Shown here piece after piece: positions 2,626 through 9,000 of a stretch of DNA of 26,871 nt. A program made the position numbers and the translations under genes. The notes under the pieces were generated by a model that was given only the letters and a program-made list of their open reading frames with translations, had not been told where the DNA came from and searched no databases. Location of the stretch: assembly GCA_035493435.1 (NCBI GenBank), contig DATJII010000294.1, positions 1 through 26,871 of the forward strand, read 5' to 3'. Every line of letters begins with the position of its first letter. The stretch's first letter is position 1. This DNA comes from Candidatus Limnocylindria bacterium (GTDB lineage: Bacteria; Verrucomicrobiota; Verrucomicrobiia; Limisphaerales; UBA9464).

Positions 2626-4236
2626 ATGCCCTATAAATCTCTTCTTCGAGCTTTGTTCGTCGCCTGCACCCTGTTGGCGAAGGGAACCTTGTGGTCTCCG
2701 CACGCCTTCGCAGAAGCGGGTTCTGGCATCAATGAAGTGTTGAGTTTCGATGGTTCCCAGCCGGCCCCCGCCGTCCTGGAGGATCGCCTCGATTTTCGTG
2801 GGGCCTCGCTCACGATCGAGTTCTGGGCCCGGTTGGCCCGCCTCCACGCTGACGCGCCATTGATTCTTGGCGGAACTGCCGCGAAGGAAAAAGGACTGCA
2901 AATAGGGTTCCGTCCGAACGGGGCGTTCACATTTGGATTCGGCGGCGATGACCTCTCTACCGCCGCGAATCTGGCGGACTCCGGATGGCACCATTGGGCC
3001 TGTGTCTATGAGGCCACTGCCAATACCCGGATCATCTATCGCGATGGGATACCGGTGGCCGCTGACCGGCCGGCGACAGCATTTTCTGGCGATCTTGCCC
3101 GGGTCGAGATCGGTTTTGCCGGGCAGTCCAGATTCCATGGACGCGTCGGCGAGGTGCGGCTCTGGAACCTGGCCCGCAATTGCGAGGCGATCGCCGCCAA
3201 CCTGGCCGTGGGTGCGTCGTTGACGGCTTCGCCGGGCTTGATACTGCGATGGAATGCCGGGTTGATCCCCTCGTCCGGTCTGCCGGTGGCGCTGCCCAGT
3301 TCCGGGGTAAGGTTGGTGGCGGACGAGTTTCCGCGCTTGGCGACTTTGCTCCGGACCGTGGATCAGGGCACGGCGGAGGTGGTGGTCGATAATTTTATCA
3401 GTTCCCATCCCGAACGGGAGGCCGACGGGATTCCCGCATCACGCCCCGGCAATATCCGCCTGCCGCTTTCATCCAGTAATGCCTGCGGTGGTTTCAACGC
3501 CTTTGAGGCGGGTTTCGATATCATCCTGGCTGGCCGTGGCAAAAGTCGGCTGGCCAACGTGCGCCGTGACGGACCTGGCAATGGACCCTCCGCTGCCGGC
3601 TCGGGCAAGGCGGCGTTTAATTATGGAGAAGCCAGTGGGAAAGGCGGTCACTCCGGATCACGGCCAGCCTTCTCCGTTCTACTTGTGAGCGAAACGGAAA
3701 GTGATGGTCGTCGCTGCCAATCGGTTCAGGTCGTCAGTGGCGCCACGTTGGTGGTTGAGCGAATACTCGCCACGGGAGTGGAGCCTGAATCCTCGGTGGC
3801 TTGGCGTTTTCGCGCCGCGGTAAGCCGTTATGGTCTGGTTTCGGTGTGGGTTTTGCCATTGGATACGGTGGGCCGACCCATCGGCGATCGGATAGTGGTG
3901 TGCGAGCAGGCTCCTATTGACTGGGCACCGAAGGTTACGTGGGAGTTTGGGGCCTCGATCACGGAAGGCGGCGGTTTCGAGAAGGCCCATTTTGACAATG
4001 TTGCCGTCATTGCCGATCGAATTCCCGCTCCGTCCAACAGGCGCTCGAATCCCAGTTTGCGCCTCTTGGTGGAAACGCCAGTGAGGGGCTCGTCTCCAGT
4101 CGAGGGAAGTCGGGGCCAAGCCACGTCTTCGCCCGCACTTCCGCCGGGCTCCCGAGAACTCGGGAATATTCAGCGGACGTTGATTGGTGTTTCATCCAAA
4201 CCACAAAACCAACGCCATTGTCCCGTTCAGGGTTAA
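2626..4236 (+). CDS. Secreted LamG/concanavalin-A-like lectin domain protein (stand-alone paralogue of the giant protein's N-terminal module)
   Basis: The signal peptide is MPYKSLLRALFVACTLLAKGTLWSPHAFA. The Laminin_G_3-type signature reads LDFRGASLTIEFWARL...GLQIGFRPNGAFTFGF...WHHWACVYEA...RIIYRDG...GRVGEVRLWN. The protein aligns along its whole length with residues ~35-520 of the 4,061-aa ORF, for example VVVDNF, FEAGFDIIL/FDAGFDFVL, AWRFRAAVSRYGLVSVWVLPLD/VWRLRATVSAQGLAAVRLYRLD and RIVVCEQAPIDWAPKVTWEFG/KYVICENAPLSWTPKDAWTFG. The last ~60 aa are low-complexity and the exact stop is less certain. Confidence 0.7.
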   Translation: MPYKSLLRALFVACTLLAKGTLWSPHAFAEAGSGINEVLSFDGSQPAPAVLEDRLDFRGASLTIEFWARLARLHADAPLILGGTAAKEKGLQIGFRPNGAFTFGFGGDDLSTAANLADSGWHHWACVYEATANTRIIYRDGIPVAADRPATAFSGDLARVEIGFAGQSRFHGRVGEVRLWNLARNCEAIAANLAVGASLTASPGLILRWNAGLIPSSGLPVALPSSGVRLVADEFPRLATLLRTVDQGTAEVVVDNFISSHPEREADGIPASRPGNIRLPLSSSNACGGFNAFEAGFDIILAGRGKSRLANVRRDGPGNGPSAAGSGKAAFNYGEASGKGGHSGSRPAFSVLLVSETESDGRRCQSVQVVSGATLVVERILATGVEPESSVAWRFRAAVSRYGLVSVWVLPLDTVGRPIGDRIVVCEQAPIDWAPKVTWEFGASITEGGGFEKAHFDNVAVIADRIPAPSNRRSNPSLRLLVETPVRGSSPVEGSRGQATSSPALPPGSRELGNIQRTLIGVSSKPQNQRHCPVQG

Positions 4237-4246
4237 TAGCGACGGC

Positions 4247-4253
4247 AAGGAGA
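4247..4253 (+). promoter_or_regulatory. Shine-Dalgarno AAGGAGA for the ATG at 4265
   Basis: The motif is a perfect AAGGAG core 11 nt upstream of the ATG at 4265. It is the only strong SD seen among the gene starts in this window. Confidence 0.5.
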
Positions 4254-6085: not shown

Positions 6086-6097
6086 CCCGCCCGGCTT

Positions 6098-9000
6098 ATG
6101 AATTTTTTCACTTATAAAATATCCCGTTCCGCCGGGTTGTTGGTGGTATTGCTCGCAATTCTCTCGCTTTGTGCGGGGAAGGGCCTCGCGCAAGGGCTCA
6201 ACCGGGTGCTCCGGTTTGACCTGTCTCAAACCAACGCCGCTGCGTCCGATTCCACGATCGACTTGCGGGACACTTCTTTCACCGTTGAGTTTTGGGCGAA
6301 ACGCGACCGAAAGGACAATGATGACTTTGTGGTCTTTAGCGGGACGACGGAGACCGACAAGGGATTGCACATCGGGTTTCGCAAGGAAGGCCAATTCACC
6401 TTCGCCTTCTGGAACGACGACCTGGACGTCAATTTTGCGGATCCCTCGCTGATGTGGCACCACTGGGCGTGTGTCTATGACCGGCAGGCCAACCAGCGCT
6501 CCATTTATCTGGATGGGACGCTGGTCAAAAGTGACACGCCTCGTGGTGATTACATCGGGACGCCTTCCAGGCTCGAACTGGGAGGATCCGCCAATACCGC
6601 TTTTGGGGCCAAGTTCAAGGGGCGCCTGGACGAAGTCCGTGTCTGGACCGTCGTCCGGAGCAGGTTTGAGGTGGCTGCGAATCAGGGCCTGGGTTCCCTC
6701 GACCCGGCCACACCGGGCCTGAAATACTATTGGAACTTCGAAGCTGTAAGTGGCGCCAACGTCGTATCCGTGTCGCCCGTCACGGGAAAACTATCGATTC
6801 CCGGCGCAGGAGTGCAGGTTGTGGTGGATGAGTTCCCTGCCTTTGCCTCCACCTTTGGCGGGGTGGACCGCCAATATTATGAGACAGTGGTGGATAACTT
6901 CAGCGGCACGAATGCCGCCCCGGAGGGCGTGACGTTTCTATCGAATTCCACCCTGGGCAGCGTGGGACCCTCTCGCGCCCAGATGGGAATCGTTTCAAAC
7001 TCCCTGGCATTGCCCCTTCGGCTAACACGGTATTATGCGACGTCCAACGCCAATTGGGCGCTGCGGCTTACGGCTGCAGGCATCAAGGGGCAGGTCAACA
7101 TGGTTCGTTTCCCGGTCATCCGCGCGAATGATGACAATGCCATCAATGAGTTCGACGCAGGTTTTGATTTTGTTCTTTGGAGCCCCCCGATGATCGAGGT
7201 GGCGTCGGTCGGCGCCTCGTTGACAACCAATTCGTATCGACCGTTCTCATCACCGGCGGGCGACGGAATCTCCTTTAACTTTGGCGACTTGACACCGGGG
7301 GCTCCCCAGGCGGGTTTGGCCAAAGGGTTCACCATCAACATCACCTCCGATGACAATGGGCTTGGCGACAACACGCGGCAGTATGTCCGCGTTTATTCCG
7401 ACGGGGTCAAAGTCGCGGAGTCTATTATTCCCAACCTTTATTCGACCGACCTCACCGGCGTGTGGCGGCTTCGCGCTACGGTCAGCGCCCAGGGACTGGC
7501 CGCCGTACGTCTTTATCGCCTGGATGCCAATCGTGTTCCTACGGCCGATAAATATGTGATCTGTGAAAATGCGCCCTTGTCCTGGACGCCCAAGGACGCC
7601 TGGACGTTCGGTTTGGGCGGCCGTTCCGTCAATAACACTGAAGAAGCCCTGGTCGACAGTGTCTCCATCTACGCGGGACGCCGTGTGGTATCGAGCACGG
7701 GGGTGGTTTTTGCCACGGGTACTGTGGTTCGGCCGCTCTCCGCCGATCTCTCGCTCCGGTTTATCGCATCACCCACCAACCTGTTTCGTACGAATGCCGT
7801 GATGGGCACCGTGGACGTGGGACGGGTCACGGACGTGCGTCCCGATTTTGACCGCGGCACGAACTATTTGCTCCCCTTGGCGGGGGCCATGTCCTTCAAC
7901 GGTGTCCAGGACGGACTGCGGCTGCCACCGATCACTGCTTTCAACGACGGTGCCTTTACCGTCGAAGCATGGGTGTATCCCCGCTCGGTTAACAAGTTCG
8001 CCCGTATTTTGCACACCTCCGCCTCGACGATTACTGGCGACAGCCTGCCTGCCGACAACCATGGAGGTGTCATCCTGGCGCTGGATGATGGCAATCTTGC
8101 CACGCGTGGAATTCCCGCGCTTTATCTTTACGGCAAGGACCAGTCCCTCGAATCCGCCCTGGATTCCGATACGCCGATTCCCCTGAACCAATGGGTTCAT
8201 CTCGCGGCGGTGGTGGATGGCACCACCGCACGGATGTATATGAACGGTCGGTTGGTGGCTTCACGCCATGACATGGTGCTTCCTCCCTCCCTTGATCGCA
8301 ACGTGGCGCTCCTGGGCAGTTCACCCTGGAAGTATGGGGACTTGGCCAACGTGGTGATTGACGAGGTTCGGATATGGAATACTGCTCTGCCGCAGGCCCA
8401 GATTCAGTCGTGGATGTTTCGCGAGGTGCAGCCCCGGCATCCCAGCTTTGCACGCCTGAAGAATTATTGGAGGTTCAATGACCCGACCCTGGCGGTGGTG
8501 GACGAGGTCACCCGGGCCACGACGTCGGTCTTCGGGACTGCACCCACCCAGGTGGGCTTCGGGCCGCCTATTGATGGCTCCCGGGTTGTCACGTTTGCTC
8601 CGACCGTGCCTGGGGCGACCTACGCCTATCGCACGTATTTCGTCAATCAACTGCAAACAACTACCACCAGCTTTACAACTCCCTTGCCTGGCATCAACCC
8701 GCTGGCCAGCCGTGTGATCCTGGAGGATGCGGGGCTGCAGACGATAGCCTTGGGCGGAATTGCCTATGGCGGGCCGGACTCGAATTCAGTCCCGCCGCCT
8801 GGCGCTTCGCCCCTCTTGGTCACCGCCACGAGTGACAACCCCGGTTTGATTCCGCCGTCCCTGATTTCCTGCATCTATACGAATCAGGACACCGAAGGCA
8901 CGCTGGTATTCGCGTCGGCGCCGAATGCCTTCGGCTCGGCCAGACTCACTGTCACCGTATCCTATACGTATGCCGGCGGCGCCAAAACGGCAAGCAGCGA

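Follow-up and report, generated by a model that had tools for sequence, protein, structure and literature searches.

Why does a gene for a giant protein stand beside a separate gene for that protein's own N-terminal head? The question is raised by a complete contig of 26,871 bp (the window, meaning the whole stretch of DNA analysed here), whose plus strand bears a tightly packed row of genes. One of them, the small gene, encodes a protein of 536 residues; a single gene, which we call mid, separates it from the gene for a giant protein of 4061 residues, which thus lies two genes downstream of the small gene. A preliminary description of this DNA had taken the small protein for an old and conserved stand-alone paralogue of the giant's N-terminal module and had suggested an accessory role for it, such as chaperone, decoy, assembly partner or alternative receptor-binding head. 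We find that the small protein is a true paralogue of the ~500 N-terminal residues of the giant and that the window alone, among the loci compared, carries such a free copy. We see about an even chance that the small gene encodes a working exported binding protein, with its role left unspecified.

The small protein is a colinear paralogue of the giant's N-terminus

The comparison concerns the following parts of the two genes, in which a slash marks the predicted signal peptide cleavage site.

2626–4236, plus strand: small gene, 536 residues, free paralogue of the giant N-terminus (open reading frame with ATG start; BLASTP)
2626–2712, plus strand: predicted Sec signal peptide of the small protein, residues 1–29 (...HAFA/EA), read by eye
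2725–3270, plus strand: LamG domain (Laminin_G_3) of the small protein, residues 34–215 (Pfam PF13385; identity to giant residues 33–222)
3271–4020, plus strand: module 2 of the small protein, residues 216–465 (identity to giant residues 223–528)
4021–4236, plus strand: C-terminal tail of the small protein, residues 466–536, with no counterpart in the giant or elsewhere
6098–18283, plus strand: giant gene, 4061 residues (open reading frame)
6194–6763, plus strand: first LamG domain of the giant (LamG-1), residues 33–222, matching the small LamG domain (alignment, Pfam)
6764–7681, plus strand: module 2 of the giant, residues 223–528, with three insertions (alignment)

With the small protein as query and giant residues 1–800 as target, BLASTP gave a single colinear alignment that joins small residues 34–465 to giant residues 33–528 (164 of 504 positions identical, 33%; E-value 2e-74). 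The motifs CEQAPIDWAPKVTWEFG and CENAPLSWTPKDAWTFG, to which the preliminary description had drawn attention, both fall inside it. Each part of the alignment was also scored against 200 shuffles. The LamG part has 79 identities in 175 positions (45%, z = 71), and the part after it (small residues 216–470, giant residues 223–535) has 82 in 244 (34%, z = 40). The likeness therefore goes well past the LamG fold, and identity outside that domain lies above the 20% that had been set in advance as the mark of a resemblance confined to it. The earlier estimate of ~35–40% identity was of the right order and slightly high overall; the view that the duplication is old agrees with so deep a divergence. 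In the giant, module 2 contains extra segments of ~18, 30 and 8 residues that the small copy does not have. Both precursors open with a predicted Sec-type signal peptide and, read by eye, both mature proteins start at G-[IL]-N-x-V-L. The small signal peptide shows K4/R8, a hydrophobic core and A-x-A before E30 (AFA/E), while the giant reads GLA/Q; the two peptides are analogous and not alignable.

The first domain is readily placed. Small residues 52–190 match Laminin_G_3 (PF13385), of the concanavalin A-like lectin/glucanase superfamily, with an E-value of 6e-17 and 62.6 bits, the gathering cutoff being 27.6. The closest relative of this domain outside the window (42% identity) is the first LamG domain of P0002, a protein of loci L005 and L087 in which LamG is joined to the C-terminal part of mid (fetched loci are cited by L numbers). 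The closest outside relatives, in P0002 and in L086–L120, belong to the same 'WHHWACVY' subfamily, and the proteins that carry them are accessory proteins and giants from loci of this same type; in L094 and L096 a LamG domain of this subfamily directly follows the signal peptide of the giant.

Module 2 is of another kind. Set beside bacterial LamG/Laminin_G_3 proteins, both copies have a first domain that passes the Pfam threshold and a second that is not LamG by profile comparison. Module 2 has no Pfam match at E ≤ 10, and its interpretation as a diverged LamG domain was rejected when hhalign, comparing the two module-2 sequences with a profile built from the window's five LamG domains, returned a probability of 1.6%. 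A two-sequence HMMER profile of module 2, run against all 1.84 billion representative proteins, recovered only the small protein and one T/A-rich repeat protein, the latter match (E-value 3e-5) being regarded as spurious and due to low complexity. Pattern scans of metagenome and GTDB genome collections yielded nothing that tblastn confirmed, tblastn against 85 related loci found no match, and module 2 is absent from all 120 fetched loci. A second metagenome scan, made with the whole small protein, returned 35 loci, all through the LamG motif WHHWACVY. These hold no real module-2 match, and their three weak alignments (24–27% identity, E-values 2e-7 to 5e-6) reach about residue 280–309. An alignment of the small protein with L009 that runs past the LamG domain was likewise discarded; it covers that giant's fourth LamG domain and then unrelated core sequence. 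As far as these searches reach, module 2 is an orphan domain with two known occurrences, one in the small gene and one in the giant gene of this contig. It is probably beta-rich; its strand-like motifs brought an L-type-lectin-like jelly roll to mind, a fold that we do not claim for it. Sequence searches of the PDB were uninformative for the small protein, the giant and a profile of the giant's C-terminus.

The last 71 residues of the small protein have no similarity, in any frame, to the giant, to mid or to the 503- and 182-residue proteins encoded downstream. G, S, P, A and R make up 55% of this tail and aromatic residues are lacking; G+C content (GC) by codon position is flat, at 0.60/0.58/0.57 against 0.59/0.48/0.71 for the giant. 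The idea that the tail derives, out of frame, from the 3' end of the giant gene, from mid or from the downstream genes was considered and is unsupported by the frame comparisons. On the minus strand, a 343-residue open reading frame (2377–3408) overlaps the small gene, and its codon-position GC is similar to that on the sense strand. Most likely this long frame is spurious, a product of a GC-rich region, and it was judged so because the homology to the giant lies in the plus frame.

The conserved gene set around the giant

The remaining genes of the row are listed below.

49–1647, plus strand: sensor histidine kinase (Pfam Reg_prop, Y_Y_Y, HisKA_3 and HATPase)
1664–2347, plus strand: LuxR-type response regulator (Pfam)
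4265–6085, plus strand: mid gene, 606 residues, conserved partner immediately 5' of the giant
18315–19715, plus strand: downstream conserved partner, counted from the likely start M38 of a 503-residue open reading frame that begins at 18204 (translation, homologues)
After the 503-residue frame, plus strand: 182-residue open reading frame (list of open reading frames)

A non-coding stretch of 279 nucleotides (nt) separates the regulator from the small gene; 28 nt lie between the small gene and mid, and 12 nt between mid and the giant. The start of mid was set at 4265 because an AGGAG-like site lies 8 nt before that ATG.

An alignment of three mid proteins was scanned over one genome per GTDB species and gave 190 confirmed matches, from which 80 loci were fetched. 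The mid loci are mostly from Verrucomicrobiota/Limisphaerales, with others from Geobacteraceae, Wenzhouxiangella (including a cultured strain, Wenzhouxiangella sediminis XDB06, locus L033), Acidobacteriota and Omnitrophota. In the matched loci a mid homologue immediately precedes the giant homologue (identity to mid 38% in L001, 33% in L003), the N-terminal ~250 residues of the 503-residue protein recur beside giant homologues in 16 loci, and the kinase/regulator pair is found upstream of mid in nine other loci. Mid, the giant and the 503-residue protein form a conserved gene set, present in at least 190 species, most of them Verrucomicrobiota. Neither mid nor the 503-residue protein has a Pfam or NCBIfam match, and literature searches on the mid–giant family returned nothing relevant.

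The small gene behaves differently. In a locus-by-locus test over 84 loci, every open reading frame upstream of mid was compared with the large open reading frames downstream. A stand-alone upstream frame colinear with the N-terminus of its own giant was found at one of the 84 mid loci, the window itself; none of the other 83 has a free copy of the giant N-terminus. Where other loci gave an internal match (L007, L020, L029, L041), it came from a second giant in tandem or inverted position. The upstream match in L007, at first a candidate for a free head, belongs to a second, inverted locus of the same type as the window's giant (3–4526, minus strand), which aligns with the frame after mid (12119–14887) over 637 residues at 34.5% identity and has its own S74-peptidase-like and 531-residue-like genes. 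HMMER, DNA-collection, tblastn and locus-by-locus comparisons together produced no orthologue of the small protein, which leaves the earlier statement that the duplication is conserved unsupported. On these comparisons the free copy appears to be a local partial duplication, a one-off and not a standard component of the system. All the other genomes examined have a system that works without the small gene, and for this reason a general role as accessory or assembly factor is unlikely.

Separately encoded LamG domains do recur beside giants. In L005/L087 (P0002), L088, L091, L093 and L117, mid is split into a gene for its N-terminal part and a gene in which one to three LamG domains are fused to its C-terminal part; the split locus in L005 spans 8892–12766. 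This recurring theme makes a working free head plausible. In L090 the gene for the N-terminal part of mid is followed by a truncated 427-residue protein with two LamG domains and by no giant, which indicates that broken LamG leftovers do occur as well.

The place of the small gene between the regulator and mid is also filled elsewhere. In five loci with the same kinase/regulator pair it holds a gene for a SurA/PrsA-like peptidyl-prolyl isomerase (PPIase) lipoprotein:

L009, 8669–9895: SurA/PrsA-like PPIase gene
L011, 8797–9861: SurA/PrsA-like PPIase gene
L021, 8752–9786: SurA/PrsA-like PPIase gene
L043, 4484–5740: SurA/PrsA-like PPIase gene
L077, 8827–9864: SurA/PrsA-like PPIase gene

Rotamase genes also adjoin the cluster in L001, L004 and L005. 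By Pfam the window has no PPIase gene, and the small gene fills that slot. No PPIase remnant was found in or near the tail of the small gene, by a search that was overly permissive and returned noise only.

Some observations concern the contig as a whole. The sensor kinase of the window has 532 residues, against ~1020 for homologues upstream of mid in L021 and L085, which have longer Reg_prop propellers; just 48 nt separate the start of its gene from the end of the contig, and the gene may be truncated or shortened. Past the 182-residue frame the genes are mostly on the opposite strand and are unrelated housekeeping or mobile genes. Among the minus-strand frames, a probable gene fragment of 118 residues (25970–26326) matches a type I restriction endonuclease subunit over the C-terminus of the latter only (T1RH-like_C, E-value 5e-32). 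Databases contain a protein identical to the small one under the name 'LamG domain-containing protein', assigned to a metagenome-assembled genome (MAG) of Candidatus Limnocylindria. This NCBI label (Chloroflexota) conflicts with the affinity of the closest mid and giant relatives to Verrucomicrobiota/Limisphaerales and Omnitrophota; a binning or labelling error is likely.

The giant and the A subunits of Tc toxins

TcA is the pentameric, receptor-binding and pore-forming A subunit of Tc toxins. The part of the giant that bears on a comparison with it is its C-terminus:

15098–18280, plus strand: C-terminal 1061 residues of the giant, TcA-like in a predicted model, with very long helices and then an alpha/beta end domain

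The Pfam and NCBIfam content of the giant, namely four Laminin_G_3 domains (267.9 bits), Big_9/cadherin-like Ig domains and HAF repeats, all lies in its first ~2700 residues. A search with the C-terminal 1061 residues as query found more than 560 homologues at 42–70% identity. Pfam recognises no domain in any of them, and they belong to Verrucomicrobiota, Omnitrophota, Desulfobacterota, Spirochaetota and other groups. Along the giant, residues 1800–2400 and 2750–4061 are conserved in 45–58 of the 68 loci with a giant homologue, and residues 1–1800 are variable; residues 300–500, within module 2, have a match in none of the 68.

An AlphaFold model of the C-terminus, built with 28 homologues, places helices of ~90 and 125 residues before an alpha/beta end domain. 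In a Foldseek comparison with the PDB, the 21 best matches are all Tc-toxin A subunits (TcdA1, XptA1/A2, TcdA4, TcaA–TcaB and YenTcA), with E-values from 6e-9 to 8e-4 over 600–650 aligned columns. The predicted order of elements is that of the TcA fold, a long helical pore-forming hairpin followed by the TcB-binding domain. Counting against the assignment are the medium confidence of the model (predicted local distance difference test score, pLDDT, 65), TM-scores of 0.15–0.18, identities of 11–15% and the lack of a sequence-level match. No Tc family is among the matches at E ≤ 0.1 for the giant or its 28 relatives, nor does TcA appear when PDB sequences are searched with a profile; the Pfam families of Tc A subunits, which we take to be VRP1, TcA_TcB_BD, TcA RBD, neuraminidase-like and ABC_toxin_N, were not verified as present in the scanned library.

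Gene context points in the same direction at some loci. Genes with SpvB/FG-GAP and TcdB_toxin_midN/RHS domains, equivalent to TcB and TcC, directly follow the giant homologue in L003/L072, L076 and L053, and RHS genes also lie near L035 and L036. The window contig has no TcB or TcC gene, nor does one lie directly downstream of the giant homologue in L001, L002 or L004. We call the giant TcA-like because of the Foldseek matches together with the TcB and TcC genes beside its homologues elsewhere. It would be a distant structural relative of TcA, similar in predicted fold and partly in gene context, and we do not file it as a member of that family. It differs from Tc toxins in being ~1500 residues longer than TcA, with N-terminal LamG and HAF arrays, and in travelling with two partner genes, mid and that of the 503-residue protein, that have no known Tc counterpart. 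In one survey, 96.4% of Tc loci came from Proteobacteria (PMC7861908).

Two of the homologous loci deserve a remark. The giant homologue of L003 spans 10001–22104. That of L001, a Verrucomicrobia MAG, is split into overlapping open reading frames in different frames (4396–10302 and 10001–15382), by either a frameshift or an assembly error.

Working gene or leftover

The case for a working gene starts from the frame itself, which has stayed open over 465 homologous codons despite ~67% amino-acid divergence. The positions that remain identical between the small protein and the giant are mostly V, G, P, F, W and D, with one C, residues of the kind that hold a fold. The start codon, the signal peptide and its cleavage motif are kept, and the gene is tightly coupled to those that follow.

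If the gene works, its history and action may be pictured as follows. A partial duplication of the giant's 5' end would have given rise to a separate protein consisting of a signal peptide, LamG and module 2; truncation of a tandem second giant is an equally possible origin. In the first ~1800 residues of the giant, domains of binding type (LamG, Ig-like, HAF) would make up a variable array, of which the duplicated part would be the outermost and most variable piece. The small gene probably shares a transcript with mid, the giant and the two genes downstream, presumably under the upstream two-component system, and its product would leave the cell through Sec as a free two-domain protein. Its most likely activity there would be to bind the class of ligand, presumably a carbohydrate on a surface, that the tip of the giant binds; the analogy is with lectin domains of the concanavalin type and with the receptor-binding domains at the periphery of TcA. 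The cell would thereby gain an extra or a competing soluble binding head, which may in turn affect the giant.

Several points weigh against a working binding protein. The small copy lacks the three module-2 segments that the giant has, its content of G, S, P, A and R is 45–48% against 34–40% in the giant copy, and it has fewer aromatic residues. The 71-residue tail looks like translated non-coding DNA. Deletions, compositional bias and tail fit relaxed constraint, and with no orthologue in the searches this single sequence offers no cross-species sign of purifying selection. A ligand is known for no member of the giant family. A single-sequence AlphaFold2 prediction of the small protein was unusable (pLDDT 31), which leaves the fold of module 2 and its putative binding site without a model. 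The reservations about the TcA assignment given above count here too.

Both an extra or competing head and a decaying truncated copy, the latter not considered in the preliminary description, are possible; a chaperone or assembly role found no support. Decay is the alternative that we take most seriously, as a tentative and somewhat doubtful one. The small gene would then be what is left of the 5' end of a second giant gene, or of a duplication that failed; it would break off after codon ~465, with reading continuing into formerly non-coding DNA, and its product, if still translated, would have no role. The tail, with no homology, no aromatic residue and a flat codon-position GC, speaks for this view, as do the three internal deletions and the G/S-rich replacements in module 2. 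Searches of proteins, DNA collections and loci found no orthologue, tandem giant loci exist (L005, L020, L029, L041, L105), and L090 has a truncated LamG-only protein without a giant. A dead gene, however, should show stops or frameshifts, and this frame is intact from its start through 465 homologous codons at 33–45% identity. It also retains the signal peptide with its cleavage motif, core-type residues at the conserved positions and genes still tightly coupled downstream.

That the small protein is a competitor or decoy is unlikely in our judgement. Here the free head would occupy the giant's receptor, for example on the surface of the producer or its kin, limiting self-targeting or tuning activity; the indirect points in favour are that it has the same two domains as the giant's tip, predicted export and a place in the same gene cluster. 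At 33–45% identity, however, its binding specificity may well differ; the gene occurs in no other locus of the family, so that such protection is not generally needed; and no target is known. Rather improbable, too, is the proposal that the small protein is a functional, separate targeting subunit of an unrecognised clade of TcA-like injection or pore machines in Verrucomicrobiota, one that current Tc sequence models miss, and that it docks on the giant or masks the producer's receptor as self-protection. In the docking version it would decorate the giant as the separately encoded chitinases (Chi1/Chi2) decorate YenTc. Least probable is a chaperone or assembly partner of the giant that replaces the SurA-like PPIase usual in its slot. 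The slot argues for it, being held by a PPIase lipoprotein in at least five loci with the same kinase/regulator pair and by the small gene in the window, which has no PPIase, and rotamases adjoin other clusters. Against it, the small protein resembles no family of chaperones, known chaperones do not look like a pair of lectin-type domains taken from their own client, and none of the other loci has the gene.

Our preferred account of the small gene is a binding protein that works and is exported. Orphan cdiA-CT and rhs tips and truncated adhesin copies, which adjoin large polymorphic surface and toxin genes, offer a comparison; the orphan modules are C-terminal toxin tips, often without start signals and usually much closer to the active copies. 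The small gene resembles orphan cdiA-CT and rhs modules, as generally known, in being a partial copy of the variable end of a huge exported protein, lying beside the full-length gene. It is unlike them in representing the N-terminus, complete with a start codon and a signal peptide, and in being only 33% identical to the full-length copy. To our knowledge, no A subunit has been described whose N-terminal head also exists as a free paralogue, and if the targeting-subunit proposal is true, this would be the first case of a TcA head supplied in trans by a gene of its own.

That one lineage should carry a partial duplicate of the variable end of a large, modular, exported protein is nothing out of the ordinary in evolution. 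Such duplication is common among large modular surface proteins, and the finding alone says little until expression or binding is known. More notable is the widespread family of TcA-like giants with its two conserved partners, which is invisible to current Tc sequence models. The gene set, unannotated and often accompanied by a PPIase and a two-component system, occurs in Verrucomicrobiota as well as in several further phyla. An active free head would provide a small soluble handle for finding the ligands of these giants, a protein of 4061 residues being hard to study directly.

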